64,000 bases of DNA from Candidatus Marinacidobacterales bacterium (GCA_965226495.1 OZ245365.1:5529783-5593782); one strand, 5' to 3'; positions 22,790-58,659 are shown, counted from the first letter of the stretch. The notes: a model not told the origin generated them from the sequence alone. A program made the numbers and translations.

Positions 22790-23560
22790 ATGTCTAGAAA
22801 ACTTCCTTTGATTGCTAGCTTTCTCGCATTGTTTTCCCTGAGCGTGCCGGTGATGGCCCAGCGCACCACCGGGAACATCGTTGGAGTCGTGTCCGACGAG
22901 ACCGGCGCGATTTTGCCGGGAGTGACAGTCACGATAGCTGGTCAATACCTCATGGCTTCTCAAACCGCGACGTCCACCGCGTCCGGACGCTACCGGTTTC
23001 CCAACTTGCCGCCCGGTCCCTACACACTGACCTTCAGCCTCACCGGGTTCGCTTCCTTAACTCGCAGCGACCTGCGGTTGGAAACCGGCGCGACTCTCGA
23101 AGTGAACGTTGTGCTCAAGTTGAGCCAGGTCGCCGAGTCGGTCACCGTGACCGGAGAACAACCGGTCGTCGACGTACGTTCCTCCGAAATAAGCACCAAC
23201 TACGATCGCGAATGGGTAGAGAATGCTCCGCTTCCACGCTTCACCTTCTTCGACCTCATCAACGCGGCCCCGGGCATCAGCCAGAACGACTCACAGGACT
23301 CCCGATCCACCGCACTCGGCTCGGGAACAGACGAGAACTCCTATATGCTGGACGGCACAGATTTCACGTCCCCTTTTACCGGGGCCGCCTGGCCCTGGCC
23401 CAACACCGATGCCATCGCCGAAGTGGAGGTGCTGTCCTTAGGAGCTCCCGCCGAGTACGGCAACCTCTCCGGCGCTGTCTTCAACATCACCACTCGCCAG
23501 GGAAGTAACGACTTCCACGGGGATGTGAATTACTACTACCAATCCGAGGGCTTGACGGCT
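22790..23560 (+). pseudogene. TonB-dependent receptor, 5' fragment (signal peptide plus CarboxypepD_reg-like and plug start), interrupted by an IS
   Basis: MSRKLPLIASFLALFSLSVPVMAQRTTGNIVGVVSDETGAILPGVTVTI...FHGDVNYYYQSEGLTA, then IS sequence begins. The track ORF tail after 23560 is IS-derived. Confidence 0.75.
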
Positions 23561-24598
23561 TGTGACTTCAAGTTTGAAGCGCACCATTCGTTAGTTCCCA
23601 TGGAAACGTTCCTCCGGTGTGCGGTAACCGAGCCTCTTGCGGGGCCGTGTGTTGAGCTTCTTTGCGATACCATCGCAGTGGCGTTGCGTGAGCGCTGCTT
23701 GGCTGGTGCGCTTCGGCAGGTATTGTCGTAGCAATCCATTGAAGTTCTCGTTGCTGCCTCTCTCCCATGAGTGATAGGGAGTTGCAAAGTAGAACTTGAC
23801 GCCGGTCGCTTCCTCGACGGATTCGTAGTCGTGGAACTCCGTGCCATTGTCCGCGGTGATGGTCTTGACCTGATCCGGCACCCGCCGGAGCAACATCTTC
23901 GTTCGCTGGCTAGTGCCGAACATGCTGCGGTCGGACAGTTTGCCGATCAGCGCATAGCCCGTCTTTCGTTCCACGAGCGTGGTGACGCAGTCCGGCGCGT
24001 CTTTTCCTACCACGGTGTCAATCTCCCAGTGGCCAACGGCACGGCGCTTGTCGATACAAGACGGCCGCTCGGAGATGTGACGCTTCCCGGCCAGGCGGCC
24101 TCGGCTGTCGTAGCTGTTGTGGCGCTTGCGTCTAAGTTTGGGCGAGCATCGAAGGTGGCGGTATAGATGTCCTCCGGCCTCCTTGTCCCGCCAAACGTGG
24201 GTGTAGATCGTCTCGTGGCTGATCGAGAGCTCGCCGTGAAGGCGCAGGTGGCCGGAGATCTGCTCTGGGCTCCAGTCGGCCTTAAGCTTCTTCTCCACCA
24301 GGGCAAAGTCGGCCTTTGTGAAGTACTGGTTCCGGCGAGACCGCGAGCGTCGTCCGTTCGTTCTCTCGATGGCCTTGCTCGGCCGGTAGCATCCATCACT
24401 AGGTGAGCTGTTCCTCCTGACCTCTCTCGAGATGGTGCTCCGGTGGCGCCCCAGGCGCCGCGCGATCTCGGCCGAGCAAAATCCCTCCCGTCGCAGCGCC
24501 GCGATGGTGTAGCGTTCTTCCGAGGTGATCTGGTAATAAGTCATTAGCGAGTCCCCATTCTTGGTTGTTTGAGGAATCGTGGCACATTCCAGGTCACC
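23561..24598 (-). mobile_element. IS30-family insertion sequence (about 1.04 kb) inserted into the TonB-dependent receptor gene
   Basis: Single DDE transposase ORF flanked by imperfect terminal inverted repeats (left tGTGACttcaag...; right ...ccaGGTCACc). The host ORF resumes in frame after it. Boundaries are approximate to a few bp. Confidence 0.78.
23591..24544 (-). CDS. IS30-family transposase
   Basis: 317 aa. N-terminal HTH (YQITSEERYTIAALRREGFCSAEIARRLGRHRSTISRE) and C-terminal DDE integrase core (GHWEIDTV...ITADNGTEF...SWERGSNENFNGLLRQYLPK) typical of IS30. Confidence 0.85.
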   Translation of the reverse strand: MTYYQITSEERYTIAALRREGFCSAEIARRLGRHRSTISREVRRNSSPSDGCYRPSKAIERTNGRRSRSRRNQYFTKADFALVEKKLKADWSPEQISGHLRLHGELSISHETIYTHVWRDKEAGGHLYRHLRCSPKLRRKRHNSYDSRGRLAGKRHISERPSCIDKRRAVGHWEIDTVVGKDAPDCVTTLVERKTGYALIGKLSDRSMFGTSQRTKMLLRRVPDQVKTITADNGTEFHDYESVEEATGVKFYFATPYHSWERGSNENFNGLLRQYLPKRTSQAALTQRHCDGIAKKLNTRPRKRLGYRTPEERFHGN

Positions 24599-26621
24599 TC
24601 ATCCGGGAGCTGTGTTGCACTTACTTTATGAATTCGCGGCTAGTAACACCACTCCGGCGCAGGACGACGGCTTCCCCTTCAACCGCGACTTTTACAACGA
24701 CTTCACGGCGCAGGTCGGTGGACCGATCATAAAGGACAGGCTCTGGTTTTTCGGCTCCTACCAGCACCAAGAGGACTCCAGTACCCAGCCCGGCGTCAAT
24801 CCGGACTTCCCGACCCTGACCGAGAGCGACCGGATGTTCGTCAAGGTCAATTATCAAATTAATGACAACCACCGGCTGCTCTTCGCTCTCCATAACGACT
24901 GGTACTTTCTGCCAGGCGAACAAAATGCCAACACCGCTCCCACCACTGTGGGTGTAGAGTCCGGAAACAACCCGTCACCCAATCTGACGTACACCGGAAT
25001 ATTCTCGGCAAACACTCTCGTCGAGGCCCGCTTCTCGGGTTTCTACGGCACCGACCACGGAGACCCCATAGTGGAGGGAGAGCCCCGAGTAAAACCTCGC
25101 TTCTACAATCTCGATACGGGTCAGATTACGGGAGGGGTCTACTACTGGTACGACAGCAACGTTTTCAAGACCGGCGTTTCCGGCAAAGTCTCTCACTACG
25201 CCGATCAGTTTCTCGGAGGAAGCCACGACTTCAAGTTCGGCGCTCAGTACAGCCGGGGCGGTGTGGACAACGGCGCCTACGGTGCCAACGACTTCATCTA
25301 CACGTACGAGTACTACGGCGAGCCCTATGCCTATGGATACTCCTACGATGCCTTTGGCTACGGCGGCATCGCAGAAACCATTGGTGTCTTTGTCGATGAC
25401 AGCTGGGCGGTCAACGACCGACTCACGCTCAACCTAGGTCTTAGGTACGATCACAAAGTCGCCTCGGTCCCCGAGCTTTCCGTCCCTGACGCGGCCGGGA
25501 ACCTTACGGGTGCAACCTTCCCCGCGAGGGATCTCTACACGTGGGACACTATCTCACCCAGGCTGGGCTTCAACTTGAGACTGACCACGGATGGAAAAAC
25601 AGCCCTGAAGGGACATTGGGGTCGCTACTACCGGGGCATCGTGACCGGCGAGTTTGTCTACGAGCTCGGGTTGACACCCGCCTCGACTTTTGCCGGGTCC
25701 TATGATCTAGCCACACAGCAGTTCACAAGCCTAGAAGAGTTCGAGTCCAGTTTGAACAAGGGCGTGGATCCGGACTACTCCAACCCATACACCGATCAGT
25801 TCATTATTGGTTTCGAGAGAGAGCTCACCACCAATTGGGGGTTCTCCGCCAACTATGTTCACAAGCGGGGGAGGAACAACGCCGCCTGGAGCGCCACCGG
25901 TGAGTACGAGGAGATCACCTATATCGACGACCAAGGCACAGATGCCACCGGCAATCCCATCACGGTCTTGGCTCTGGTGAGTGATCCAGGCGACCGCTTC
26001 TTTACCATCGGCAATGACGACCGGATGTCGACCGACGTGAACGCCGTCACCATCACGCTCAGGAAACGGATGTCCGACCGCTGGCAAATGACCAACTCCC
26101 TGGTCTTCATGAAGACTAGCGGACGACTGCCTTCTAGTATCGACTCCTTCGGTCGTCAGAACGCTTCTCTCGTTTTCAGCGACTTCGGACAAAATCCCAA
26201 CGACTTCATCAATACGGACGGACGACTCGTCAACGACCGACCGGTGGAGTTCAAGACCTCGCTCGTCTACGAGTTCCCCTTCAACCTCATGCTCGCGGCC
26301 GGTTGGAGGCTTCAGAGCGGGAAGCCATGGGCGAGGACGGTTCGGCCCGAGGGAACCGGGCTCGTCACCGAGATCTTGGCAGAGCAGATTGACGGTAGTC
26401 GCCGCGTTTCCACGTGGAACCTCCTCGATCTGAGAGCGCAATATGCCATCGAGCTTGGCGGCGGAACGAATGTCGCGTTTTTCGGCGACGTTTTCAATCT
26501 GTTCAACGAAGACGCCAACGAGGAGGTCTTGAGCACGCTCGGCACGTCGGAAAGCTTTGACTTTCCTAGCTTCTTCGTGCTTCCACGCCGTTTGATGCTT
26601 GGCGCGAAGTTCCGCTTTTAG
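24599..26621 (+). pseudogene. TonB-dependent receptor, 3' fragment (beta-barrel, ends ...AKFRF)
   Basis: ...LLYEFAASNTTPAQDDGFPFNRDFYNDFTAQVGGPIIKDRLWFFGSYQHQ... through to a C-terminal aromatic residue, typical of an outer-membrane barrel. Continues the 22790 ORF in frame once the IS is removed. Confidence 0.75.
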
Positions 26622-26710: not shown

Positions 26711-28306
26711 ATGTCCGTTGCCATGGGTTTTACACCGAGCACCGCCTGTCTCCTTTTGCTTTTGCACGCGCCCGGTGCTTTTCCGCAAACCGTGAAGAAG
26801 TCCTTGGCTCAATTGGAACGACAAGGATTCGAAGCGCTCGGTCAAGGAAGATACGATAGCGCCCTTGACGCATTCGAGTTGCTTCTTGTCGTGAACCCCG
26901 ACCGCGCCTCTGCCCATTACGGCAAAGGGCTCGCACTCACGGGCATGCTGAACTACTCGGCTGCCGTCGACTCCCTCGAGAATGCCGCTTCGCTCGATCC
27001 GAATCGTGCCGAGACCTGGCGACGACTCGTGACGCTCTATTCCCAGCTTCAGCGCGACGAGAAGGCGAAGCGCGCTTTTGAGAACGCTCGAAGACTCGCG
27101 CCGGTGCCGGATGAGGAAAGGCTAGGCCTGGCGCGCGCCTTGAGAAAGACGGGATGGCTTAAGGAAGCCCATGCTTTGCTCCGCGAGGCAGAGCCTCTCG
27201 GTGCGGAAGAATATTTCGAGCTTGGCCTCCTCGCACTGGAGGAAGACGACTCAGGCCGGGCGGAAGCGCACTTCGAGAAAGCGACCGCGGACCCGATACG
27301 CTCCGCAGCGGAGGCGGAATACCAGTACGGACGGACGCTCGAGACTCTGGGTAAGCCTGAGCCGGCGATCCAGCACTACCGTCGGGCGCTATCCAAGGAT
27401 CAGCGCCTTTTGAGCGCTCGCTTCCGATTGGGGACTCTCTTGCTGCGTACGGGCGATGCCGAGCAAGGTCGGGCTTTGCTGCGCGGGTACGAAGAGTTGC
27501 GTCAATGGGATCGGAGGGTAAATCTCTTGCTCTCCATGGTGACATCCGGAACACTCTCCGACACTGCAGAGCGAGAAAAGAAGCTCGAGCTCGTGAATCT
27601 ATTTCTTCAAGCCGGTGCCTTCGAAGACGCAGGCGCACTCATCCACTCGGCACTGGCCAAGGACTCGAACGACCCCGCATTTCTCGTTGCCCAAGCGGAG
27701 TGGCTCCTTTCGTCGGGACAGCCGGATAAGTCACGGGTGGTTCTGGACACCTTGGTCTCAGTATCCAGCCCTCTTCCAGATGCGCTCTGGCTTTCCGGTC
27801 GGCTCCACATTATTGAAGGTGAACCGAAGCAAGCGCTCGAATCCTTCCAACGGCTCATCGCGATCGATCCCGATCCACCCGCCGCCCTCTTGAAGGAGGT
27901 CGCCACCGCCTACGCCATGAGCGGGCAAAGCAGTCAAGCCGAGACCTATTTTCACAGGGCTATTCAGAAAGATCCGCTGCTGGCGGGAGCCCAGGCGGGG
28001 CTCGGCGCGCTTCTAGAGTCCACAGGACGCCTCGAGGAAGCGGAGCAGCGCTATCGCCGCGCCCTCGAGATCAATCCCGATCTTCTTTCCGCACAACAGC
28101 TACTTGCCGAGCTTCTTCTGCGAAGAGGCGATGCAGAAGATGCGGTGACGCTATTGCGAAGGAGTGTAACCACGAACCCCGCGAACGCACTGCTCCGTCG
28201 CAACCTCGCTCGCGCTCTCGAGAGGGTCGGGAACATCGCAGAAGGGGAGGCGGAGCTGGAAAAGGCTCGAGAGATCGAAGCGCGGAAAAGCCCGCGCACG
28301 AAATGA
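26711..28306 (+). CDS. Secreted tetratricopeptide-repeat protein
   Basis: Signal peptide, then at least 10 TPR-like 34-aa units (AHYGKGLALTGMLNYSAAVDSLENAASLDPNRAETW...). Confidence 0.8.
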   Translation: MSVAMGFTPSTACLLLLLHAPGAFPQTVKKSLAQLERQGFEALGQGRYDSALDAFELLLVVNPDRASAHYGKGLALTGMLNYSAAVDSLENAASLDPNRAETWRRLVTLYSQLQRDEKAKRAFENARRLAPVPDEERLGLARALRKTGWLKEAHALLREAEPLGAEEYFELGLLALEEDDSGRAEAHFEKATADPIRSAAEAEYQYGRTLETLGKPEPAIQHYRRALSKDQRLLSARFRLGTLLLRTGDAEQGRALLRGYEELRQWDRRVNLLLSMVTSGTLSDTAEREKKLELVNLFLQAGAFEDAGALIHSALAKDSNDPAFLVAQAEWLLSSGQPDKSRVVLDTLVSVSSPLPDALWLSGRLHIIEGEPKQALESFQRLIAIDPDPPAALLKEVATAYAMSGQSSQAETYFHRAIQKDPLLAGAQAGLGALLESTGRLEEAEQRYRRALEINPDLLSAQQLLAELLLRRGDAEDAVTLLRRSVTTNPANALLRRNLARALERVGNIAEGEAELEKAREIEARKSPRTK

Positions 28307-28435
28307 AGACCGCTGTCCTAGGACTGCGTTATTCTGACCGCTTGAGAAAGGGGGTCAAAGCCTCTGAGTTACGGAGACTTAGGAGGGAGTTAGCATGCTA
28401 CACGCGGATTTTCCAAGAATCGCAGCGAACTCCGA

Positions 28436-29773
28436 GTGACGAGCTACCACGCCCCGCTCGCTTGGCTTGGCGGCCCATCGCTGGCGAGCAACGTCCTTTT
28501 CAGTGTCGAACATGGGCAAGTCACCAACATCCGAGCGGCTGCGGACCCGACCGAGGCATCCCGACTCGGCGGCATCGTCCTCCCCGGCTTGGTAAGCGCG
28601 CATTCGCATGCTTTCCACCGCGCACTTCGTGGGAAGACGCATGGTGAAGGTGGCGATTTCTGGGCCTGGCGAAACAAGATGTACGCAATGGCCAATCGGC
28701 TCAACCCGACCACTTACCGCCGCCTTGCGACCGAGGTGTTCGGCGAGATGCTGCGAGCCGGGATCACAGCAGTCGGCGAATTTCACTACCTCCACCATCA
28801 GCCCGACGGCGCTCCGTATGCTGTAAGGCATGCAATGGAACACGCTATCGTGGGAGCCGCCCGCGACAGCGGTATCCGCCTCACGTTGATCGACACGCGC
28901 TACCTGTCCTCCGACATCGACGGATCGCCCCCGTTGCCCGAGCAACGGCGCTTCTCCGATGGGACCGTGAACGACTGGGCTACGCGAGTACGAGAACTCG
29001 CCGAATCACTCGACACGCCGACAGTTCGACTCGGTGTGGCCGCCCACAGCGTGCGAGCCGTGCCGGCACCAGATCTTCCGAACGTCGCGGCCCTCGCCGA
29101 CGAGCTCGACGCGCCGGTCCATGTCCACATATCGGAGCAGCGCGCCGAGAACGCCGCGTGTCGCGCCGCGCATGGCACCAGTCCCACAGCGCTCCTTCGC
29201 GACACCGGAGTGCTGAACCAGCGTGCGACGGCCGTGCACGCAACTCACTTGGAGGAAAGCAACATCGCAATCTATGGGTCTTCCGGAGCAGGCGTCTGCT
29301 TGTGCCCGACGACCGAACGCGAGCTCGGCGACGGGATCGGCCCGGCCATCGAATTGCGTGACGCAGGCGTACGACTCAGTCTCGGGAGCGACAGCAACGC
29401 GGTCGTCGATCTGTTCGAAGAGGCACGCGCCTTGGAGTTAAACGACCGGCTCCGTCTCGAACGACGCGGGATTCATGCACCCGAGCATCTGATGACGGCC
29501 GCAACAAGCGGCGGGATGCGCGCGTTGGGATGGGGCGACTGGCGGCCGCTCTCGGTCGGCGCTCCTGCCGACTTCATCGTGCTCGACCCGAACGCTGCGG
29601 AACTTGCCGGGTTCGAAACGGCCGACGGTGTCGGCGGGCTGCTGTTCGCGGCAACGCCGAGGGCCGTCTCGGACGTGGTGGTGGCCGGAGAACAGGTCAT
29701 ACGCAATGGTGAAAACGTGGGAGGACAATCTCCAACCGGTCTGGCTGCGGCAATCTTGGCGGTGTCGTCATGA
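28436..29773 (+). CDS. hutF: Formimidoylglutamate deiminase
   Basis: GTG start. YHAPLAWLGG...NVLFSVEHGQVTNI and SAHSHAFHRALRG match HutF (amidohydrolase superfamily, about 450 aa). Confidence 0.82.
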   Translation: MTSYHAPLAWLGGPSLASNVLFSVEHGQVTNIRAAADPTEASRLGGIVLPGLVSAHSHAFHRALRGKTHGEGGDFWAWRNKMYAMANRLNPTTYRRLATEVFGEMLRAGITAVGEFHYLHHQPDGAPYAVRHAMEHAIVGAARDSGIRLTLIDTRYLSSDIDGSPPLPEQRRFSDGTVNDWATRVRELAESLDTPTVRLGVAAHSVRAVPAPDLPNVAALADELDAPVHVHISEQRAENAACRAAHGTSPTALLRDTGVLNQRATAVHATHLEESNIAIYGSSGAGVCLCPTTERELGDGIGPAIELRDAGVRLSLGSDSNAVVDLFEEARALELNDRLRLERRGIHAPEHLMTAATSGGMRALGWGDWRPLSVGAPADFIVLDPNAAELAGFETADGVGGLLFAATPRAVSDVVVAGEQVIRNGENVGGQSPTGLAAAILAVSS

Positions 29774-31002
29774 CAATCTCCGTTGACACCGTGATCGTCG
29801 ACGGGATCGTTGCAACCTTGCAATCCGGATCGGCTGGATCGGAGCCATACGGGCTGCTCAGCGACGCCGTCATAGGGATCACCGATGGCCGCATCAGCTA
29901 TCTCGGTCCGGAGGTCGGTGCCGAAACCAAGCAGCGTTGGTCCGTCGGCGGCCGGTTGATCACACCCGCCCTCATCGACTGTCACACCCACCTCGTCTTC
30001 GGAGGCGAACGCATCACCGAGTTCGAGCGACGACTCGGTGGCACCACTTACGAAGAGATTGCGAGTGCCGGCGGCGGCATCCTTTCGACAGTCACAGCCA
30101 CCAGAGCCGCGTCGAACGACGAACTTTTTGATTCCGGCGCTCGCCGCCTCCGCTGGCTACTACAGAGCGGTGTCGGCACGGTGGAGATCAAGTCGGGCTA
30201 CGGGCTGAATGCCCACCATGAGCTACGCATGCTGCGGGTGGCCCGACGTCTCGGCGACGCGTTGCCGGTGCGGATCGTGACGTCGCTCCTCGCGGCTCAC
30301 GCCATCCCTCCCGAACATCGAGCAGACCCGGACCGTTACATCTCCGAGATCTGCGAAGACATGATCCCGGCGGCGGCGGAAGAGGGATTGGCCGATTCTG
30401 TGGATGCGTATGGCGAACGGATTGCATTTACACCGGCACAGGTCCGCCGGGTCTTCGACGCGGCGCGCGACGCCAATCTAGCAGTGCGATTGCACGCCGA
30501 CCAGTTGAGCGATTCGGGCGGTGCCGCTTTGGCGGCCGAGTATGGCGCGTTGTCCGCGGATCACCTCGAACACACCTCCGATGCAGGCGTTGACGCGTTG
30601 GCGACTGCGGGCACGGTCGCGGTACTGATCCCAGGAGCGTCCGCCTTCCTGAACGAGGAAGCACGCCCACCGATCGCAAAGATGCGTCGCGCCGGCGTGC
30701 GGATCGCGGTCTCAACCGATCTCAACCCCGGGACCGCTCCATTCGGTTCCCTCCAAGAAGCGATGGCATTGGCCAGCGCTCGCTTCCGGCTGACACCTGA
30801 GGAAACGCTGGCCGGGACCACTCGACATGCGGCGGCCGCTCTCGGTTTGGGCGACACCGGGGTTATCCAGCCCGGCATGCGTGCCGACCTCACGGTTTGG
30901 GACGTGAAGTCGCCGGCGGCTTTGTCGTACTGGTCCGGGGCACCACTCTGCGCGGAGGTATGGATCAACGGAATCATCCACTATGAAAGAGACGAACCAT
31001 GA
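29770..31002 (+). CDS. hutI: Imidazolonepropionase
   Basis: LIDCHTHLVFGGERITEFERRLGGTTYEEIASAGGGI is the HutI signature. 4-bp ATGA overlap with hutF. Confidence 0.9.
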   Translation: MTISVDTVIVDGIVATLQSGSAGSEPYGLLSDAVIGITDGRISYLGPEVGAETKQRWSVGGRLITPALIDCHTHLVFGGERITEFERRLGGTTYEEIASAGGGILSTVTATRAASNDELFDSGARRLRWLLQSGVGTVEIKSGYGLNAHHELRMLRVARRLGDALPVRIVTSLLAAHAIPPEHRADPDRYISEICEDMIPAAAEEGLADSVDAYGERIAFTPAQVRRVFDAARDANLAVRLHADQLSDSGGAALAAEYGALSADHLEHTSDAGVDALATAGTVAVLIPGASAFLNEEARPPIAKMRRAGVRIAVSTDLNPGTAPFGSLQEAMALASARFRLTPEETLAGTTRHAAAALGLGDTGVIQPGMRADLTVWDVKSPAALSYWSGAPLCAEVWINGIIHYERDEP

Positions 31003-31580
31003 TCCGCCCCATTCCACAGATCGGCGACCCCATCCTGCGAACCGCCGCCACCGCCGTTACCCTCGAAGAGCTCCGTGGCGAGGAGACGCAGCAACTCATC
31101 GACGACATGATCGAAACGATGCGCCATGCCGAAGGTGCCGGAATCGCCGCCCAGCAAGTCGGCGTCCCGGTAAGAATCTGCATCCTCAGTGTGGAGCGGA
31201 ACGAGCGGTATCCCTACAAGCCACCGCTTCCCCTCACCGTGCTCGTCAACCCGGTGCTCGAGGTTCTCGAGGACGTCACCTTTCTCAACAACGAAGGCTG
31301 CTTGAGCGTGCCGCTACGTGGCGATCTCCATCGTTTCATGACCGTACGCGTCCGCTCCTTGGATCGGCATGGGGAGAAGTTCGAACAGACCTATCGCGGT
31401 TTGAGTGCCGGCAGCGTGCAACACGAGCTCGATCATCTCGACGGGCACCTCATCGTCGACCGGATCCACGACCCCACTACGTTCTCGACTTGGGACAACT
31501 TCAAGATGTACGGGTATGACGACTACATCCGGCGGATCCAGCCCGTGATCGAAAAGACCGAACCGCGATCGGAGAAGTGA
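30999..31580 (+). CDS. def: Peptide deformylase-family metallohydrolase (paralog embedded in the hut operon)
   Basis: All three PDF motifs are present: GAGIAAQQVGV, EGCLSVP, QHELDHLDG. 193 aa. 4-bp ATGA overlap with hutI. No fmt gene adjacent. Confidence 0.85.
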   Translation: MIRPIPQIGDPILRTAATAVTLEELRGEETQQLIDDMIETMRHAEGAGIAAQQVGVPVRICILSVERNERYPYKPPLPLTVLVNPVLEVLEDVTFLNNEGCLSVPLRGDLHRFMTVRVRSLDRHGEKFEQTYRGLSAGSVQHELDHLDGHLIVDRIHDPTTFSTWDNFKMYGYDDYIRRIQPVIEKTEPRSEK

Positions 31581-31615
31581 TAACCGGCATCGCCTCGCCG
31601 GCACTTTACCTAGAC

Positions 31616-32147
31616 CTACTTGCGGGCGGTCTCGGTATCCTTCTCAGCTTTTTCAGGTGCAGGATTTTCGGGCTCCGGAGGTGGACTCCAGAAGTTCGGG
31701 CTGCCTCCGGCCTTTGCGGCATGCTCACCATGGTAGAGAGCGCAGTTGAAGACGATGCGGAAGGTGCCAAACGATTGGCCTCGCCATTGCGGTCGAAAGC
31801 CAAGCAGGACGACGTGACCCTTGCCGTGGCGAACATCCAAAGCGGCAGCGAAACCGTTGATGTGCTCCTCACCTAGCAAGTAGCCCGACAGAAGGGGAGA
31901 GCCCGCCTCGCCAGGCCACCATCGCAATGAGTGTGGGTATCGATGAATCCGGGAGCGACGACCAAACTCTCAGCATCAATGATCTGGGCGGCCGTTTTCC
32001 CGGCCAGCTCCCCTATCTCGACGATGGTGTCTCCCATGATGCCGACGTCGCCTCGAAACCCGGAATCTCCGGAACCATCAACGTTCCGTTCGTTCTGATG
32101 AGGATGTCAAAATCTTCACCAGCGCTGACACAACCGAACGAGATCAA
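31616..32147 (-). pseudogene. Remnant of an N-acyl-D-amino-acid deacylase-like amidohydrolase (frameshifted, internally deleted)
   Basis: Minus-strand frames read (M)CVSAGEDFDILIRTNGT then a shift, then [53 protein letters not shown], the classic amidohydrolase N-terminus. It is followed by a stop and an unrelated about 100-aa ORF. It is far too short for the roughly 480-aa family. Confidence 0.5.
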
Positions 32148-32267
32148 AATGAGAATTAAGCTGCGTTCGGGCATGGTTCCCCTCGTGGCCCGGAACTGTA
32201 CCGACGGAAACGTAGCCCGGCAAGAGTAGAGCGCCCTGAACCACCGTGGGGAGATTCCTTTCCGAGT

Positions 32268-33140
32268 GTGTTACGCTCGCGCGAAATGCCAGTCTACAAC
32301 GGCACCGGCATGCTCAAGAAGGTCTTGCTCTGTCCGTCCACCTATTACGAGCTGGTTCCAGTCGACGACTACGCGCGAACCGCGCTCGAACGAGGCGACA
32401 AGGTCGACCACGAGAAGGCCGAGGCACAGCACAACGAACTAGTTGATATCTACCGAGATGCAGGGGTTGACGTCTTTTGGACCGAGGAGCCCGACCCCAC
32501 CCGCCACTACGCAGTCAACGCGCGGGATTTCGCCGTCAACTCTCCTGAAGGGTTCGTCATCTGTCGCTTCAAGTATTCGGAGCGCCGAGGAGAAGAGATT
32601 CCCGGCGAAAAACAATTACGGAAATTGGGCTACAACATTTTCGGACACATCGAGCGCGGTTGTTGGGAAGGCGGTGACAATAAGTACATCGACGACAAGA
32701 ATCTCGCCACCGGAACAGGGGAGCGAAGCACCTGGCCCGGTATTCACAACGCACAAGAGATATTCGCCAAACAAGGCATCAAGGTGCATGGCATTCCCTT
32801 CCCACCGAAATGGACTCATCTTGATTGTCTTTTCGCTCCCGTCGCCCCGAAGCTGGCTTTGATCGTGAAATCCGAGGTCCCCGACTGGTTCGTGGGATTT
32901 CTCGAAGGCCGAGAATGCGAGCTGGTAGACATCCCCGTAGAAAAAGCCGAAGGAGAGGTCGCCCTCAACGTATTGTGTCTTGGCAAGGATCGAGTTATCT
33001 CTTTCAAAGACAACACGTATATCAATGACATCTTGAAAGGCCTGGGGCTAACTGTCTACGCACCAGATCTAAGCGAGTACACCGAGCGCGGTCAGGGACC
33101 GCATTGCCTGACCTGCGAGCTCGATCGAGATCGGGAATAG
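32268..33140 (+). CDS. Amidinotransferase-superfamily enzyme (DDAH/arginine-deiminase-like fold)
   Basis: CWEGGDNKYIDDKNLATGTGERS (EGGD...G.SERT motif) and C-terminal GQGPHCLTCEL (GG.HC catalytic Cys). About 290 aa fits DDAH-size enzymes. Start is GTG 32268 or ATG 32286. Confidence 0.6.
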   Translation: MLRSREMPVYNGTGMLKKVLLCPSTYYELVPVDDYARTALERGDKVDHEKAEAQHNELVDIYRDAGVDVFWTEEPDPTRHYAVNARDFAVNSPEGFVICRFKYSERRGEEIPGEKQLRKLGYNIFGHIERGCWEGGDNKYIDDKNLATGTGERSTWPGIHNAQEIFAKQGIKVHGIPFPPKWTHLDCLFAPVAPKLALIVKSEVPDWFVGFLEGRECELVDIPVEKAEGEVALNVLCLGKDRVISFKDNTYINDILKGLGLTVYAPDLSEYTERGQGPHCLTCELDRDRE

Positions 33141-33215: not shown

Positions 33216-33568
33216 ATGAAGATCACTCTATTTCGACGCCTGGCTCTAACCGTTTTGTTACGGGGTGATGGGCGGCAGCATGCAACCAACAAGGCCACGT
33301 CCAGGTGCTCCTCAACATGATCGAGTTCGGGATGAATGTGCAGGAGGCGGGTGAGGCACCACGGTTCCGGCACTTCACCGGTCCAAACGTCGGCTTCGAA
33401 TCGGGGATCGACATCGAAGTGCTGCAGGAGCTCATCCGAAAGGGTCATCGGCCCATGACGCGCATGGGAGTCTATGGCGGATACCAAGCCATCCGGATTG
33501 ATTGGGAAACCGGCGTCCTCATCGGAGGCTCCGATCCCCGCAAGGACGGGGCCGCCATGGGTTATTGA
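33216..33568 (+). pseudogene. ggt: gamma-Glutamyltranspeptidase remnant: signal-peptide-like start plus only the last about 90 aa of the small subunit
   Basis: 33305-33568 encodes (Q)VLLNMIEFGMNVQEAGEAPRFRHF...GGYQAIRIDWETGVLIGGSDPRKDGAAMGY*, which matches the GGT C-terminus (…LQMVVNSIDYGMNVAEATNAPRFHHQW...GASDPRSVDDLTAGY). 33216 encodes MKITLFRRLALTVLL in another frame. The N-terminal 400+ aa are missing. Confidence 0.7.
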
Positions 33569-35639: not shown

Positions 35640-36130
35640 ATTGAATCACGGAGCTATTCCAACCTTCCTCTGTGTTCTGGGCACCGCGGATGCCGACCTG
35701 CACCGCCCGCTTGGGATCGAGCAACCCCTCTTCGACAGCCCGTCGGAACGGCGCGGCGTGCACCTTACGGCAGAACTCCGCAATATCTTCGAGCGCTTCT
35801 TCCACGTTGTAACCATGTGTCAGAATGACGTCACCCCAAATCGGCCACGCGGCAAAGCTCGTAGGGATCGATCTTGCTGACGTGATGGATAGCGCGCATC
35901 AGGCTCGAGCTGTTTCGCATTTCGCAAGGGCCATGCCGTGCGCCGGTCCTATTGGTGACCGCGATGTCGAACGGCACACCAATCAAGCCGATGTCTACTT
36001 CAGAGGGATCACGAACGAGCGGGGCACGCATGAAGGTAGCGATGTCCGTGTAGCGCGGCGACAGCACGGGGTTATAGTCGTCGGCCACGAGCCGTGTCCG
36101 CTCCTTTGGCTTGTTCACGATATATAGCTT
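35640..36130 (-). pseudogene. Agmatinase/arginase-family (ureohydrolase) remnant: frameshift, about 50-aa internal deletion removing the Mn-binding motifs, and 3' truncation
   Basis: Frame 1 reads DIATFMRAPLVRDPSEVDIGLIGVPFDIAVTNRTGARHGPCEMRNSS...RVADLG*, the family N-terminus. After a +1 slip at TTGGGG it continues DLGDVILTHGYNVEEALEDIAEFCRKVHAAPFRRAVEEGLLDPKRAVQVGIRGAQNTEEGW...LCA*. This skips the GGDH/DAHxD region and ends where the S9 gene starts. Confidence 0.65.
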
Positions 36131-45719: not shown

Positions 45720-46994
45720 TGCCGACGAAACTCCTCAACTTCCTTTTGTTGATTCTCCTCGCGGTGCCGTCCTTCCCACAGGGGTTGCCTAGCGCAAAGC
45801 CCGAGGATGTCGGCATGTCGACGGCGCGACTGGAGCGCATCCGCCCGGTCATGCAGGCCTATGTCGATGAGGGAAAGGTGCCCGGCATGATCACCGCCGT
45901 GGCACGGCGGGGGAAGCTGGTCCATGTCGATCAGCTGGGAATGATGGACCTCGAGCCAGGGAAGAAGATGAGATCCGACACCATCTTCCGCATCTACTCC
46001 ATGACCAAGCCGGTTACCGCCGTGGCGATGATGATCCTCTATGAGGAGGGGCGGCATCGCTTGAACGAACCGGTCTCGAAGTACCTCCCCGAATTGCAGA
46101 ACTTGACGGTCTAGCTGGGGGGGGCTGGGCAAGAATCTGCGCACGGAGCCGGCGAGGCCGATGACGATCAAGCACCTCCTCCTTCACACCTCAGGTTTGA
46201 TCTATGGAGCCGATGAGCCCGGAGTCCCCCAACTCTACCGGGACGCCGAGATCTGGGAAGCGGTCAGCCTTGAGGACTTCGTCGACAAGCTTGCGGGGCT
46301 TCCGCTTCTCGCCCAACCGGGAACGGAGTGGAATTATGGCGTATCGACGGACGTTCTCGGTCGATTGGTAGAAGTCCTTTCCGGAGAACGTTTCGAAGAA
46401 TTCCTGGAAGAGCGCATTTTTCTGCCCCTCGGGATGGTGGACACGGCCTTCTACGTTCCGGACGAAAAGCTCGACCGCTTCGCAGCCAACTACCAAGCCA
46501 CACCAGAGGGTGGCTTGAAGCTCATCGACTCGCCCAAAAACAGCGAGTTCCGAAATCCGAATCCAGTGCCCTACGGCGGTCAAGGCCTGGTCTGCACCGT
46601 CGGCGACTTCGTACGTTTCGCCCAGATGCTCGCCAACGGTGGAGAGCTCGACGGGGTTCGGATCCTCGGACGCAAGACCGTAGACTTCATGATGCTCGAC
46701 CATTTGGGACCCGAGCTGGGGCCCGCGCCGCTCGGCGAGGCCGCGGGTTGGTACGGGATGAGCCCCGAAGGCTTGGGCTTCGGACTTGGCGGCTCCGTCG
46801 TGCGCAACGTCGCTCAGAACTCCTTGATCGGCTCGACCGGCGACTTTTCCTGGGGCGGGGTAGCGAGTACCTACTTCTGGATCGATCGGAGCGAAGCGCT
46901 CATCGCCGTGCAGTTCACCCAACTCATGCCCTCCGACAAGTATCCGATCCGTGCCGAGATGAAAATCCTCACCAATCAAGCCATCATCGACTGA
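45719..46994 (+). pseudogene. Beta-lactamase-family serine hydrolase interrupted by an in-frame TAG plus a frameshift at a G8 homopolymer (46117-46124)
   Basis: Part 1 (45719-46114) carries the signal peptide and SMTK (SxxK) motif and ends ...LPELQNLTV*. Part 2 continues in another frame: GGLGKNLRTEPARPMTIKHLLLHTSGL...WNYGVSTDVLG... Removing one G alone does not remove the TAG. The stop of the SSS gene overlaps the ATG (TGATG). Confidence 0.7.
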
Positions 46995-47012
46995 ACGCAA
47001 AAAGCGCAGAAT

Positions 47013-48152
47013 ATGACACAAGACGTTTTCGCTCCCCAACTGAGCATCGGACCTCGCGTCCGCAAGTCACCCTACTTCGACGCCACGTTGCGGTGGGGGG
47101 TCAAAGCCTTCACGATTTACAACCATATGTACATGCCGACCGTCTTTACCGATCCGGTGGACGAGTACTGGAAGCTCGTGAAGAACGTCACGTTATGGGA
47201 CGTGGCCTGCGAGCGACAGGTCGAGATCACCGGTCCCGACGCAGCCAGGTTCGTCCAGCTCTTGACACCGCGGAATCTCGCGAAATGCGCGGTAGGTCAG
47301 TGCAGGTACGTGATCTTCACGACAGAGGACGGCGGGATTCTGAACGACGCGGTCCTGCTACGCCTCGGCGAGAACCAGTTCTGGCTCTCCCCGGGGGACG
47401 GCGACGTGCTCCTATGGGCGCAAGGCGTCGCGGTGAACTCCGGGATGGACGTCACTATCGACGAGCCCGATGCGTCACCACTCCAGCTTCAAGGGCCGAA
47501 GGCGCCTCTGGTGGCCCAAGCCCTTTTCGGTGACCGGGCACTCGACCTCTCCTACTACCACTTACGGGAGACTGAGCTCGACGGGATTCCACTTGTCTTA
47601 TCTCGCACCGGCTGGAGCGGCGAGCTCGGCTACGAGCTCTTCTTGAGAGATCGCCGCCAGGGCGATGCCCTTTGGGAAAAAGTCATGACGGCAGGCAAAC
47701 CATACGGCATCGCCCCCATCGCGCCGAATCTCATTCGGAGCGTCGAGGGTGCCATCTTTTCTTACGTCTCCGACATCACGCGCGAAGACAATCCATTCAC
47801 CATCGGTTTCGATCGCATGGTCGATCTCGACCATGACTTCATCGGCCGCCAGGCGCTCACAAAGATCAAAGCAGATGGCGTCAAGCGCCGCTTGGTAGGT
47901 GTCGAGATCTCCGGCGATCCGTTACCCGGGAACGATCAATTCTGGTATGTAACGGTCGGCGGAAAGAGGGTCGGACGTGTGACTCGATGCGTTCACTCGC
48001 CTCGATTGAAGAAGAACATCGGCTTCGTCAACGTGCCGACCGAATATTCCGAAGCCGGTTCGAAGCTCACCATCGCCGTGCCTTCAGGCGACGCCGAGGC
48101 CACGGTGGTACCGACGCCGTTCGTCGCGTCTCAGAAGAAGATCCCACGGTAA
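47013..48152 (+). CDS. Aminomethyltransferase-family (GcvT-like) folate-binding protein
   Basis: GcvT fold pattern (…LWDVACERQVEITGPDAARFVQLLTPRNL..., GWSGELGYELF...). 379 aa. Confidence 0.72.
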   Translation: MTQDVFAPQLSIGPRVRKSPYFDATLRWGVKAFTIYNHMYMPTVFTDPVDEYWKLVKNVTLWDVACERQVEITGPDAARFVQLLTPRNLAKCAVGQCRYVIFTTEDGGILNDAVLLRLGENQFWLSPGDGDVLLWAQGVAVNSGMDVTIDEPDASPLQLQGPKAPLVAQALFGDRALDLSYYHLRETELDGIPLVLSRTGWSGELGYELFLRDRRQGDALWEKVMTAGKPYGIAPIAPNLIRSVEGAIFSYVSDITREDNPFTIGFDRMVDLDHDFIGRQALTKIKADGVKRRLVGVEISGDPLPGNDQFWYVTVGGKRVGRVTRCVHSPRLKKNIGFVNVPTEYSEAGSKLTIAVPSGDAEATVVPTPFVASQKKIPR

Positions 48153-48159
48153 CCCGCGC

Positions 48160-49776
48160 TCATTTACCGTCCGCGAACTGCTCTCTGAGCTTCGTTTTCA
48201 AGAATTTTCCTGTCGATGTACGGGGGATCGCTTCCACGAACTCGTAGGCATCGGGGATCCACCACTTGGCGAATTTGGGCGCGAGAAAAGCGCGGAGCTC
48301 TTCGGCCGTGGCCTTCGCTCCTTCTTTGAGAACCACAACGGCGAGAGGGCGTTCTTGCCATTTGGGATCGGGGATCGCGATGACCGCCGCCTCCTGAACC
48401 GCTTGGTGACCCATGAGCGCTCCCTCAAGATCCACGGAGCTGATCCACTCGCCCCCCGATTTGATAAGGTCCTTCGTGCGATCGGTGATCTTGACGTAGC
48501 CTTCGGGATCGATCGTCGCTACGTCTCCCGTACAGAACCACCCGTCTTCGGTCCATCGGTCTCGCTCGGACACCTTGAAGTAGCTTGACGCGACCCAGGG
48601 TCCGCGAACCTGAATTTCTCCCATCGTCTTTCCGTCCCACGGAACTTCACCGTCTTCGGAGACGGCGCGCAGATCCACCAGCGGAGAAGGTATACCTTGC
48701 TTCGCGCGGTAGGCGTATCGCTCGTCCTCTGAGAGATCCCTCATGCTGGCCTTTACCTTGCTCAACGTCCCCAGGGGTGTCGTCTCGGTCATGCCCCACG
48801 CCTGGATGACCTCGATACCGTGACGATCGAACGCTCGGATCAATGTTTCTGGGACGGCGGATCCTCCGACCAAGGCCCGCATTCCTGGAGAGAGGGTCCA
48901 ACGGTCCGGAGTCTTATCCAGCTCTTGCACCATCCCGAGCCAGATGGTGGGAACGCCCGCGGTGACCGTGACCTTCTCTTTTTCGTATAGATCCAGGAGA
49001 CTTGGTGGGTCCAAGTGCGGACCGGGGAACACCAGCTTACAACCGACGAGAGTCACGGTGAATGGAAGCCCCCAGCAATTGACGTGGAACATCGGCACCA
49101 CCGGCAAGACGACGTCCCGCTGGGAAAGTCCCATCATGTCTTCGAGTGCACAGGCAAAGGAATGCAGCACGAGAGCGCGATGGGAGTACACGACGCCCTT
49201 GGGACGGCCCGTGGTGCCGGAGGTGTAGCAGAGGCCGGCCGCATCGTTCTCCTCGATCTCCGGTTCCTCGAAATCTCCAGTGGCACGATCCAGTAGCTTT
49301 TCGTAGCTTTCACAACCTTCGGGGATCGCGTCCTCCGAATGAGAGACCACGAAGATACGCTTGAATTTAACGCGGTCGGCGAACTTCTCGAAGAGTGGCA
49401 GCAAGACATCATCGACGATCAGGAACCGATCTTCGGCGTGCTCGACGATGTAGACCAAGTCGTCGGGGTGAAGGCGGAGATTCAGCGTGTGGACGACCCC
49501 ACCGGCAGCCGGAATCCCAAAGTAGGCCTCCAGGTGTGCGTGATGATTCCACATGAACGTCGCCACGCGGTCGCCGCGATTGAGACCCGCTTTGAGCAAC
49601 CCCTCGCTCAGAGCTCGAGACCGGCGTTCGATGTCCGCATACGTGTGCCGCCGGAGCGACTTGTCGGGTTCCTGCGAAACGATCTCGACTCGAGCGAAGA
49701 GCTTCGCAGCCCGCCGGAGGAGGTGGGTCAACGTGAGAGGGTAGTTCATCATGTTCCCTTGCATGCATCCCTCCAT
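48160..49776 (-). CDS. AMP-dependent acyl-CoA synthetase (fatty-acid--CoA ligase family)
   Basis: LCYTSGTTGRPKGVVYSHR (AMP-binding motif I), and Gly-rich/DxxR/K motifs further on. Probable start MMNYPLTL (about 49752). Confidence 0.85.
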   Translation of the reverse strand: MEGCMQGNMMNYPLTLTHLLRRAAKLFARVEIVSQEPDKSLRRHTYADIERRSRALSEGLLKAGLNRGDRVATFMWNHHAHLEAYFGIPAAGGVVHTLNLRLHPDDLVYIVEHAEDRFLIVDDVLLPLFEKFADRVKFKRIFVVSHSEDAIPEGCESYEKLLDRATGDFEEPEIEENDAAGLCYTSGTTGRPKGVVYSHRALVLHSFACALEDMMGLSQRDVVLPVVPMFHVNCWGLPFTVTLVGCKLVFPGPHLDPPSLLDLYEKEKVTVTAGVPTIWLGMVQELDKTPDRWTLSPGMRALVGGSAVPETLIRAFDRHGIEVIQAWGMTETTPLGTLSKVKASMRDLSEDERYAYRAKQGIPSPLVDLRAVSEDGEVPWDGKTMGEIQVRGPWVASSYFKVSERDRWTEDGWFCTGDVATIDPEGYVKITDRTKDLIKSGGEWISSVDLEGALMGHQAVQEAAVIAIPDPKWQERPLAVVVLKEGAKATAEELRAFLAPKFAKWWIPDAYEFVEAIPRTSTGKFLKTKLREQFADGK

Positions 49777-49812
49777 CGGTGAATCAGTGCGCGCTCACTC
49801 TTCCATTCGTGG

Positions 49813-49930
49813 CGCGGGGCCCCACCCCCACGCCTCTCGCTTCGCTGGCGCTGCGCTCGGGCTGAGGGCTCCGCTCGGGCCGGGCTCGCTCCTTCATCAA
49901 CGCGGCGGGGCCCCACCCCGGCCGCCGTCG
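49813..49930. repeat. Two tandem divergent copies (49813-49851 and 49899-49940) of the GGCGAAGCGA...GTGGGGGTGGGGCCCCGCG motif, in reverse orientation
   Basis: + strand GCGCGGGGCCCCACCCCCACGCCTCTCGCTTCGCTGGCG and GCGGCGGGGCCCCACCCCGGCCGCCGTCGCTTCGCCGGCA. The reverse complement of copy 1 is nearly identical to 8507-8535. Lies between the MFS stop and the acyl-CoA synthetase start. Confidence 0.6.
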
Positions 49931-49975
49931 CTTCGCCGGCAAGCGGCTTCGCGACAGCTGACGGCTCCTCGCAGA

Positions 49976-50008
49976 GGGTGCAGTGAATCCGTAGGCACCC
50001 TCTGGTGA
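49976..50008. other. Perfect 10-bp inverted repeat CAGAGGGTGC-N13-GCACCCTCTG
   Basis: Read from the sequence. 47 nt downstream of the MFS stop on the minus strand. Not followed by a U-run in either orientation. Confidence 0.5.
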
Positions 50009-50054
50009 CTCAATGGTGCTTCTACTACTACTTTGACTTGCTGGCAAGTCGACA

Positions 50055-51336
50055 TCACCGGTCTTGAAACGTTTCGTCGGAGCGGATCCCGAGCCAGAGA
50101 AGAGCGGCGATCCAACTCACCACAGCGGCGCTTCCCAAGGCGAAAGACCAGCCGAACCAACTAACCAGCAAAGGGACCAAGGGTGTACAGATGACGCCAC
50201 CCAAGTTGGTCCACATGTTCATCACTCCGCTTGCCGAGCCCGCATGGCGCCCCGAGACGTCCACGATGGACGACCAGTAGGCGCCCTCGGTGAGCTCACC
50301 GAATCCGAAACACGACGAAAGCGCGAGGACCGCGTGCCCGGTATTGGCACCGATCACGAGTGTAATGCCGGATAGCGTCATCCCGATGAGGCCCACCCAC
50401 CTTCTACCCCAACGTCGTCCGATGCGAATCGACAAGCGGTCGGTAATGTGTCCCCCGACCGGCGCCGCGATCCCGCCCACGATGAAGGGCATGCTCGCGA
50501 AGAAACCGCTTTCCAGTATCGTGAACCCTCGCACGTCGATCAGATACAAGAAAACCAGAATACGAAATATAGAAGACGTAGCCGTAGCAGAAGTAGCTTA
50601 TCGAAAGGAGGAAAACGTTCTTGTTCCTGAACAATAGCCACGGATTCGCTGCGGTGGGCGTCGAAACGGTGGTTTCTTCTCCACCTTGGGAAATGATCGC
50701 TAGCTCTCCGCGCGTCACGGCGCGGTGATCCTCCGGTCGCTCGGTGGCGTACCAGCGGTACAACACGGCGATCAAGAAGGCGAAACCGGCGGCCACGTAG
50801 AACGCGTTACGCCACCCTACTGTCACCATCAACGACGAAATCACGGGCGGCGTAAAGGCGGAACCGATCGATAGCCCGCCGATCAAAAGAGCGAGCGGGA
50901 AAGCTCGCCCGTTCGAAGGAAACCAGTTTGCTACCGCCCGGGCCGCTACCGGATAAGTGGGTGCTTCCACGACGACCCCCAGGAGGAAGCGCAACACGAG
51001 CAAAGAAACTAGCGCGGCGAACCCGCCGGGAACGAGCAGACCGGGAACCAACCCGCTCAAGACGGTGAAGATTCCCCAGAAGAAGGCCGCTCCCCATAGA
51101 ACCCGCCACGCCCCGAAACGGTCCCCAATCCAACCGGCCGGAATCTGGCAGATGGTATAGCCGATCATGAAGCTGCTGAAGACCCAACCCATCTGCTGTT
51201 CAGACAGGTCGAGCTCGGGCATCATGAACGCCGAGGCAACGGAGATGTTCATCCGCTGCAGATAGCTGACGAAGCTAAACCCGACCAAGAGGGCCAGGAT
51301 CTTCCACCGAACTCTGGAAGCCCTGGAAGGGGACAT
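50055..51336 (-). pseudogene. MFS transporter with an apparent +1 frameshift around 50575 (or sequencing error)
   Basis: N-half ORF (51336-50404) has TM1-6 and ends ...YFCYGYVFYI then nonsense. C-half ORF (50549-50055) resumes ...IFRILVFLYLIDVRGFTILESGFFASMPF... in the +1 frame (TTG/ATA region). Together they make one 12-TM MFS. Confidence 0.65.
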
Positions 51337-51376
51337 TGTGGAGGATAGGCGGCGGGAAGACGGTCGATCCGTCTTG

Positions 51377-52000: not shown

Positions 52001-52028
52001 GTTCGTTCCTTTCGCCGTTACGTTGTCG

Positions 52029-52844: not shown

Positions 52845-52900
52845 TTGCTTTTCGATGAGTACTCTTTCCCAGTTTGTGTGTCAACTTGCAGGCTAAGTGA

Positions 52901-54192: not shown

Positions 54193-54246
54193 AGCCTCTG
54201 CACGGTTGAACTTGTCGTCCAGCCCCCCGCCGCGAGGCCTAACGGT

Positions 54247-54267
54247 TTGACCATAATATGGTAAAAT
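54247..54267. promoter_or_regulatory. Palindrome ACCATA-a-TATGGT (54252-54264, overlapping a TTGACC hexamer at 54247-54252) with a second ATATGGT 17 bp downstream, immediately upstream of the Rieske oxygenase gene
   Basis: Read from the sequence. Sits in the divergent region between the FAD-oxidoreductase and Rieske genes. TAAAAT at 54262-54267. Confidence 0.4.
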
Positions 54268-54277
54268 CCATCACGAT

Positions 54278-55420: not shown

Positions 55421-55576
55421 CTAACCGACCGCTCTCGGTGCTGGCATCGAAGCTCCTACCTGTGGTACTCAACTCCGCCGGGGGCGATCGTTCAGAGGTC
55501 AGCCACGATCGTGCCCACGCGCTTAAATCGTAATCATCCAAACCCACTGTGCTGCTAGCCGAGGAGATCCAAACCC

Positions 55577-57253: not shown

Positions 57254-57279
57254 GAATGAAAGTAGCCTGGGGTCCCGTA

Positions 57280-58488: not shown

Positions 58489-58659
58489 GATGCCCTGGCT
58501 TGGAAGGTGGTCATAGAAAACTCCTCGTGGTCGGCAGTCTAGGTAGCCGCTTTTTTCGCGTCAACTCTACTACCTTATTACTATTGCCCATGCTATTCTC
58601 TTGGACCGCGTACCACAATGCAACCAGCGGTTCCATAATGTGGTTCGGATCGACCGGGT

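Follow-up and report, generated by a model that had tools for sequence, protein, structure and literature searches.

A 64,000-nucleotide stretch of the genome of Candidatus Marinacidobacterales bacterium (GCA_965226495.1, OZ245365.1:5529783-5593782; the whole stretch is referred to as the window herein) carries a three-gene cluster in which def, a gene of the peptide deformylase (PDF) family, follows hutF and hutI of histidine catabolism. The best explanation that we can give for this cluster, with a probability of about 0.62 as judged from sequence comparisons, is that its Def belongs to a PDF subfamily that would hydrolyse N-formyl-L-glutamate in the HutF branch of the pathway, and that the window holds the transferred middle of an Acidimicrobiia-type operon. 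In this branch, HutF converts N-formimino-L-glutamate into N-formyl-L-glutamate and NH3. In Proteobacteria, the deformylation of N-formylglutamate is carried out by HutG of the FGase type.

The three genes lie on the plus strand and are joined by two short overlaps. The first, hutF (28436-29773), encodes a formimidoylglutamate deiminase of 445 amino acids with a GTG start, which scores 580.9 bits with NF006681 (cutoff 362) and 461.8 bits with TIGR02022 (cutoff 413). The second, hutI (29770-31002), encodes an imidazolonepropionase of 410 amino acids (TIGR01224, 427.9 bits, cutoff 298). Both genes score above their equivalog cutoffs and lie on the same strand, as in a HutF-branch (five-step) hut operon. 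The third gene (30999-31580) is the def paralog, whose 193-amino acid product is a member of the RGL[ST]AGT-QHE PDF subfamily and a candidate N-formyl-L-glutamate deformylase. It carries the motifs GAGIAAQQVGV, EGCLSVP, and QHELDHLDG, scores well with PF01327 (141.4 bits, cutoff 22.8) and above the cutoff of NF001159 (139.1 bits, cutoff 125), and passes TIGR00079 marginally (107.5 bits, cutoff 103.95). In the raw sequence, the stop of hutF and the start of hutI share ATGA at 29770-29773 (GTCGTCATGACAATC), and the stop of hutI and the start of def share ATGA at 30999-31002 (GAACCATGATCCGC). The open reading frames (ORFs), coordinates, and double overlap given in the initial annotation of this region thus agree exactly with the sequence and the profile scores. 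The only promoter space for the unit is a 129-bp spacer on the plus strand (28307-28435) between an upstream TPR gene and hutF, in which nothing recognizable was found. A scan of 28200-32300 for sigma-70-type promoters gave one weak match, on the minus strand, against 0.7 in shuffled sequences, which is chance level, and around the cluster as a whole neither promoters nor terminators were predicted above chance.

The association of this Def with hut genes extends well beyond the window. We scanned one genome per GTDB species with an alignment of the clade, which provided at least 80 loci, a sample and not a census, and called hut genes in the 10 kb around Def by tblastn with HutF, HutI, HutU, HutH, and HutC probes. 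Among the matches listed, to which all locus counts in this and the next paragraph refer, hut genes lie within 10 kb of Def in 56 of 80 loci. All 56 hut-linked loci are from Actinomycetota (Acidimicrobiia and Thermoleophilia/Solirubrobacterales) by record name or tree position, and 56 of the 58 Actinomycetota-type loci are hut-linked. The gene order is variable: hutH-hutU-def-hutF-hutI occurs in 23 loci, this order with hutH inverted onto the opposite strand in 11, hutU-def-hutF-hutI in 6, a hutF-def pair by itself in 3, hutH-hutU-hutF-hutI-def in 2, and hutC/hutU-hutF-hutI-def-hutH in 2, with other orders and short-contig fragments making up the rest. In 38 loci, Def lies between hut genes that share its strand, with a median gap of about 26 bp. 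The bare hutF-def pair corresponds exactly to the two steps of the HutF branch. Regulators of the GntR/UTRA or IclR type adjoin hut operons carrying Def. Linkage that persists through many rearrangements, together with the existence of a bare hutF-def module, is a classic signature of functional coupling; from this pattern, coupling of the Def subfamily to the HutF branch is very probable. The hutF-hutI-def synteny that was singled out for checking in relatives is therefore conserved through rearrangement, and hut synteny also occurs outside the 80-locus sample (L008, L098, L099, and L100).

The remaining 24 loci are not hut-linked and comprise 22 from Myxococcota and two from Acidimicrobiales. 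In Myxococcota, def is solitary amid housekeeping genes (nuoA/nuoC, dnaK, and purA, for instance), and the two Acidimicrobiales genes (L019 and L028) adjoin a gene for a SoxB-like oxidase. A Def of the same subclade as the window protein (63% identical) that is not hut-linked was also found in L005/L006 (1497-10615; Acidimicrobiia, GCA_002418265.1 and GCA_027494075.1). There, it is oriented divergently from a group of formate dehydrogenase genes (molybdopterin subunit, 51-kDa subunit, Fer2_4, and FdhD) and lies near a formate-tetrahydrofolate (THF) ligase gene, which connects the subfamily with formate handling away from the hut context.

We searched the window and the Def loci for other enzymes that could carry out the deformylation step. 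The window inventory combined Pfam searches of large ORFs with phmmer and hmmsearch on six-frame ORFs, and its positive controls worked. Neither a second PDF nor fmt, an FGase-type HutG, a formiminoglutamase hutG, or an M20 amidase was found among the six-frame ORFs of the 64-kb window, and hutH, hutU, and hutC were likewise not found in it, remnants included. The observation in the initial annotation that no FGase-family hutG is present and that fmt is not adjacent to def hence holds for the window. For the loci, we used as probes a canonical HutG from a Klebsiella plasmid (L093; TIGR02017, 380 bits), which gave 623 bits in a phmmer positive control, and the M20 amidase encoded directly next to hutF in a Nonomuraea chromosome (L092; NF006770, 595 bits). 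No match to either probe was obtained in 90 Def loci or in the window at E<=0.01. Clustering of neighboring ORFs across the Def loci returned HutH, HutU, HutI, HutF, and Def as the only recurrent families; a PhyH dioxygenase and regulators of the IclR or GntR type recur to a lesser extent. Within these operons, the PDF paralog is thus left as the sole candidate for hydrolysis of the HutF product. No second def or fmt was found in the fetched loci, which total about 1.5 Mb at no more than 20 kb per genome, and a plasmid collection that includes mislabeled chromosomes contained no member of the Def clade, its best match being 45% identical.

Several candidates for this step were considered and rejected. 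The only arginase-family sequence in the window is a pseudogene in two pieces on the minus strand (35647-36121), 90% and 47% identical to the gene in relatives, which is intact (327-394 amino acids) beside an S9 peptidase gene in L094-L097. We had considered it as a decayed formiminoglutamase hutG; the intact ortholog scores 190 bits with TIGR01230 (cutoff 174) and 131 bits with TIGR01227 (cutoff 229), which identifies it as an agmatinase. In five loci, a gene of about 265 codons separates hutU from def; tried as an FGase, it proved to encode a PhyH dioxygenase (PF05721, 85 bits). It stands in this position or just upstream of def in L020, L039, L041, L056, and L086 (9201-9998 in the last). 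The Nonomuraea gerenzanensis locus (L092, 3533-10462) contains hutU, an RpiR-like ORF, an SDR gene, an M20 'allantoate amidohydrolase' gene, hutF, and hutI, in a record that is an 11.85-Mb chromosome filed as a plasmid in PLSDB. Its M20 protein also matches the model for the N-carbamyl-L-glutamate amidohydrolase ErtE, below the cutoff. A Streptomyces avermitilis M20 protein proposed as an 'alternative N-formylglutamate deformylase' was assayed and had no activity (PMC3223725, Table 3). Because of this negative assay, we dropped the M20 amidase as a validated third analogue and regard it as a positional parallel only.

The sequence and predicted structure of Def combine a conserved catalytic apparatus with a diverged pocket. 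An AlphaFold2 model (pLDDT 94, pTM 0.90) was compared with the PDB using Foldseek, and the top 50 matches were all PDFs, the best being the Leptospira interrogans enzyme LiPDF (1sv2; TM 0.95, rmsd about 1.1-1.2 Å). Like type-1 PDFs, the model shows a long helix at its C-terminus, and the sequence groups with PDFs whose CD loop is enlarged and mobile. Among 1.84 billion representatives searched exhaustively, 20,773 PDFs were found, only 44 of them at E<=1e-30. Motif 3 reads RGL[ST]AGT[FYV]QHE in the subfamily and [ED]GF.AR..QHE in its canonical neighbors. The NERYP insert and the RG that follows EGCLSVP had also looked specific to the clade; we rejected them as clade features, since LiPDF and other genuine PDFs have both. 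A third unusual PDF group has EGHAAGTLQHE as motif 3 (P0210, P0212, P0225, P0227, P0261, P0264, and P0281); it has Ala-Gly-Thr in common with the Def subfamily and is otherwise distinct, with several members fused to longer proteins.

In a three-way alignment of 58 hut-linked, 22 Myxococcota, and 67 canonical sequences, the positions corresponding to G46-A-G-I-A-A-Q-Q53, E99-G-C-L-S103, and Q141-H-E-L-D-H146 of the window protein are 100% conserved. The catalytic residues Q53, E99-S103, H142, E143, and H146 are intact in the window Def, which departs from canonical PDFs at A47, N98, R133, G138, and S139. Changes found throughout the subfamily are Tyr73-Lys74 in the CD loop, Leu135 (canonical Phe), Gly138 (canonical Arg, Val, or Ile), Thr139 (canonical Val or Ile), and Thr164-Trp165. 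The residue immediately before EGCLS is Asn98 in 94% of the hut-linked sequences, Tyr or Phe in 95% of those from Myxococcota, and Trp, Tyr, or Phe in 78% of canonical PDFs, so that Asn replaces an aromatic residue only in the hut-linked group. Arg133 is found in 91% of hut-linked sequences. The published S1' pocket positions (EcI44, E88, L125, C129, H132, and equivalents; PMC5071857) align with positions 47, 99, 135, 139, and 142 of the window Def. By this alignment, E99, L135, and H142 are retained and Thr/Ser139 stands for Val, Ile, or Cys, with Gly138 for Arg, Val, or Ile and Asn98 for Trp, Tyr, or Phe. Ala47 stands for Ile or Val, yet Ala is also present in 31% of canonical PDFs. On the phylogeny and the S1' residues, which the initial annotation had named as points to check, the sequence comparison points to a distinct PDF subfamily whose pocket positions are altered in the alignment. 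We infer that the side-chain pocket would be lined by smaller residues and be more polar, with extra basic groups nearby, as needed to hold glutamate with its free carboxylate.

Under this proposal, Def would convert the HutF product N-formyl-L-glutamate into formate and L-glutamate (EC 3.5.1.68). The metal site formed by Cys101, His142, and His146, together with Glu143 and Gln53, would hydrolyse the formamide as in PDF. The altered S1' region, in which Ala47, Asn98, Leu135, Gly138, and Thr/Ser139 take the place of bulky hydrophobic or aromatic residues, would accept the glutamate side chain and the free alpha-carboxylate in place of a Met-peptide. Arg133 and Lys74, both basic, may also play a part; Lys74 belongs to the mobile CD loop. 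That the activity is specifically that of an N-formyl-L-glutamate deformylase seems to us reasonably probable. The natural home of such a system would be Actinomycetota (Acidimicrobiia and Thermoleophilia), from which a fragment would have passed to an Acidobacteriota lineage.

This lineage is that of the host, whose CarB is 74% identical to that of Vicinamibacteria and whose S9 peptidase matches named Acidobacteriota, in agreement with the outer-membrane receptor genes. An identical Def protein is present, on contigs as long as 6.3 Mb, in other strains with flanks that differ by insertion sequence (IS) insertions, and the three ORFs are identical in at least three assemblies. Apart from this protein and a 95%-identical variant (L101), homologs are at most 73% identical, and the named ones are from Acidimicrobiia or Actinomycetota. 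The four nearest non-identical homologs examined (73, 70, 69, and 67% identity) are all in hutI-def-hutH or hutU-hutF-hutI-def-hutH arrangements. In the operons of the nearest homologs, (hutC)-hutU-hutF-hutI-def-hutH, stop and start codons overlap, and the flanks encode the actinobacterial marker domains MDMPI_N, F420H2_quin_red, and BTAD. In our tree, the window Def nests in an Acidimicrobiia subclade with the order hutU-hutF-hutI-def-hutH. Its partners follow the same pattern: the window HutF is 58-61% identical to proteins from these operons versus 44-53% for hutU-def-hutF-hutI operons, and the window HutI 64-68% versus 35-41%. The window cluster corresponds to the middle three genes of the Acidimicrobiia-type operon, and hutH, hutU, and a regulator are present in donor-type operons (L008, L012, L016, L098, and L099). 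A transfer test based on GC content at third codon positions was too weak to use (0.72-0.77 in the cluster, about 0.64-0.76 in other window genes).

The site of the cluster is in flux. Some close relatives of the host have def and others do not; in L094, L095, and L096, with S9 peptidases 79-81% identical to that of the host, both hutF and def are missing. Of the three genes, L094 has kept no more than a hutI ortholog (87% identical) that immediately follows the TPR gene. L095 (12030-17616) and L096 (17122-21995) carry a hutH-FTCD-hutU module that converges on the same S9 gene; L095 has a UTRA/hutC-like gene as well. FTCD-type and HutF-Def-type hut modules therefore swap at one chromosomal place in Acidobacteriota. 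On the 3' side of def, at the position of hutH in the donor-type operon, comparison with L101 reveals decayed DNA (31581-32267) that contains a 103-amino acid ORF on the minus strand (31616-31927), the C-terminal stub of a longer gene. In L101 the gene 3' of def is intact, with at least 250 codons; nucleotide homology to the window (94.9%) ends at window position 31909, and only residues 157-250 remain in the window. The cluster appears to have been acquired horizontally by the Acidobacteriota lineage and sits in a decaying, IS-rich, variable region, and whether its products work in histidine catabolism there is uncertain.

The earlier suggestion that a PDF was recruited in place of HutG is well supported by these genome comparisons. 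The synteny, the lack of FGase and M20 genes in the operons, and the altered pocket all favor such a recruitment in the subfamily, but the window copy belongs to a truncated, acquired cluster and is not in the natural home of the system. Further points weigh against our proposal. The structural roles ascribed to single residues are read from the alignment, and the solved structures that come nearest, LiPDF for example, belong to genuine peptide deformylases with the same CD-loop insert. Gly138, Thr139, and Tyr73-Lys74 are shared by the 22 Myxococcota members, which have no hut linkage, so the subfamily-wide pocket changes are not diagnostic alone. No second, canonical def was seen alongside a hut-linked one, and an FGase may lie elsewhere in these genomes, the searches for both having covered no more than 20 kb per genome. 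In the host lineage, the dN/dS of def is about 0.6, an estimate from 15 substitutions (5 synonymous and 10 non-synonymous). With hutU and hutH missing from the window, its flanks pseudogenized, and this dN/dS ratio, the window def may be under relaxed constraint.

Three other explanations have to be set against N-formylglutamate deformylation. Def might be a plain housekeeping peptide deformylase, placed in hut operons for historical or regulatory reasons, with no role in N-formylglutamate breakdown. It exceeds the PDF family thresholds with every catalytic motif present, its fold is indistinguishable from that of genuine PDFs down to the type-1-like C-terminal helix, and no second def was seen in the stretches of up to 20 kb read per genome. 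In Actinomycetota, moreover, def is often not adjacent to fmt, which we count in favor of this explanation. A chance location would not, however, be expected to keep its hut linkage across at least five gene orders, and an essential gene would be unusual in a repressor-controlled catabolic operon. The gene also appears to have been co-transferred with hutF-hutI into an Acidobacteriota host whose class has a canonical PDF: the Vicinamibacteria protein has the motif AEGFFARVLQHE, is 41% identical to the window Def, and is encoded in the context infA-PDZ protease-def-thyX. The restriction of Asn before EGCLS to the hut-linked group, the absence of fmt from the window and from about 1.5 Mb of related loci, and the lack of universal presence in the host lineage are further points against a housekeeping role. 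As close relatives of the host lack Def, it is not essential in this lineage, and that absence, the nesting within Acidimicrobiia, and the canonical PDF in the class of the host make it unlikely that this is the only, essential def. We consider the housekeeping explanation quite improbable.

An auxiliary deformylase with another or broader substrate, such as free N-formyl-amino acids, nutrient formyl-peptides, or some other formylated intermediate, could also be co-regulated with amino-acid catabolism. The off-hut Defs of the same subclade, beside formate dehydrogenase and formate-THF ligase or a SoxB-like oxidase, suggest a general formate-yielding catabolic role, and the unlinked Myxococcota members and the PhyH gene that separates hutU from def in five loci are also compatible with a wider function. 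Yet nearly all Actinomycetota-type loci among the matches listed (56/58) are hut-linked, two-gene hutF-def modules exist, and the HutF product is the sole N-formyl compound made by the neighboring genes, with no other candidate for its hydrolysis, so we find a broader substrate unlikely. Whatever its role in Actinomycetota, the cluster in the window may also be a non-functional or decaying remnant that is idle in the histidine catabolism of its host. The loss of hutU, hutH, and hutC without traces, the gene stub 3' of def, a gamma-glutamyltranspeptidase (GGT) stub, the agmatinase pseudogene, the IS elements, and the variation of the region between strains all fit a remnant, as do the prior loss of hutF and def in L094, the def dN/dS of about 0.6, and the use of the FTCD route by related acidobacterial genomes. 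Against decay, the three ORFs are intact and identical in at least three assemblies with their overlaps kept, hutI has a dN/dS of 0.12 relative to its L094 ortholog, indicating purifying selection, whereas the def estimate comes from 15 substitutions only, and hutH and hutU could sit outside the window in a genome of 5-6 Mb. An idle remnant is thus conceivable, although we doubt it.

What would be new in the proposed N-formylglutamate deformylase is its substrate and its role, by non-orthologous displacement of HutG; the fold and the chemistry are known. The initial annotation had described such a displacement as not previously seen, and our full-text literature searches found no paper that proposes a PDF for the N-formylglutamate step. 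As the M20 candidate was reported to be inactive (PMC3223725) and no PDF proposal was found, the hole in the pathway is documented and unfilled. We lean towards the wider view that this PDF-fold subfamily is the missing last enzyme of the HutF branch in Acidimicrobiia and Thermoleophilia, the first PDF with a small-molecule catabolic substrate, and one that can cross phyla together with hutF-hutI. If so, a gap documented in a textbook pathway would be filled, namely the last step of the HutF branch, for which Actinomycetota have no validated enzyme, and a scaffold usually seen as co-translational would have been recruited to catabolize a free N-formyl amino acid. The NCBIfam models that match Def are generic PDF models only, and annotation pipelines accordingly name such genes 'peptide deformylase'. 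This misnaming would inflate def counts, which matter for arguments about PDF inhibitors and resistance, and would leave apparent gaps in the hut pathway of Actinomycetota that abound in soils, in the sea, and in association with sponges. Asn98, Arg133, and Gly138-Thr139 together with a hut context would then provide a simple rule for re-annotation.

Some further features of the window were noted. Between the decayed DNA next to def and the GGT stub, which comprises the last 83 residues of the protein (33305-33568, plus strand; PF01019 positions 430-512), stands an amidinotransferase/DDAH-like gene (32286-33140; PF19420 and PF02274) that scores far below all NCBIfam equivalog cutoffs. Upstream of the cluster, an IS30-family transposase gene on the minus strand (23591-24544) breaks a CarboxypepD_reg/outer-membrane beta-barrel receptor gene into two parts (22790-23731 and 24579-26621). 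This receptor gene is whole in strain L002 (862 amino acids, with a Transposase_mut element before it) and gone in strain L001. The region 46000-62200 is a neighborhood of the one-carbon (C1)/methylated-amine type, with two GCV_T aminomethyltransferase genes (47013-48152 and 57280-58488) and genes for a DAO oxidoreductase (52901-53992), the alpha subunit of a Rieske ring-hydroxylating oxygenase (54278-55420), a formate-THF ligase (55577-57253), and an amine oxidase (60483-62108).

Among known systems, Def is closest to the type-1 PDFs with an enlarged CD loop, namely LiPDF (1sv2/1y6h), Arabidopsis PDF1A (1zxz), and the Burkholderia and Xanthomonas PDFs. It shares with them the fold (Foldseek TM 0.93-0.95, rmsd 1.0-1.4 Å, 40-43% identity), the three motifs, the metal ligands, the NxRYP insert that forms the mobile CD loop, and Arg107 after EGCLSVP. 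Unlike these enzymes, Def has Asn98 in place of Trp, Tyr, or Phe, Leu135 in place of Phe or Trp, Gly138-Thr/Ser139 in place of Arg/Val/Ile-Val/Ile, Arg133 in place of an acidic or small residue, and the invariant pairs Tyr73-Lys74 and Thr164-Trp165. It also differs in context, being encoded in a catabolic hut operon with no fmt nearby and not among translation-related genes.

Three other systems compared with Def differ from it in fold or in chemistry. The FTCD (glutamate formiminotransferase) route starts from the same intermediate as HutF, N-formiminoglutamate, and occupies the same chromosomal place in L095 and L096, but it transfers the group to tetrahydrofolate, so that no N-formylglutamate is formed and no deformylase is needed. 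The Nonomuraea M20 amidase abuts hutF in a hutU-...-M20-hutF-hutI arrangement, the slot that Def occupies in hutU-def-hutF-hutI operons; its fold is unrelated to that of Def, and the two were never found together in the loci examined. FGase-type HutG (TIGR02017, PF05013), represented by the Klebsiella plasmid protein and by Pseudomonas Pa5091, catalyzes the reaction that we propose for Def and has the same operon partners, hutF and hutI. The two proteins are related neither in sequence nor in fold, and Def matches PDF models only. Because it lacks FGase homology, Def would be an analogue of HutG that arose by non-orthologous displacement and not a member of its family.

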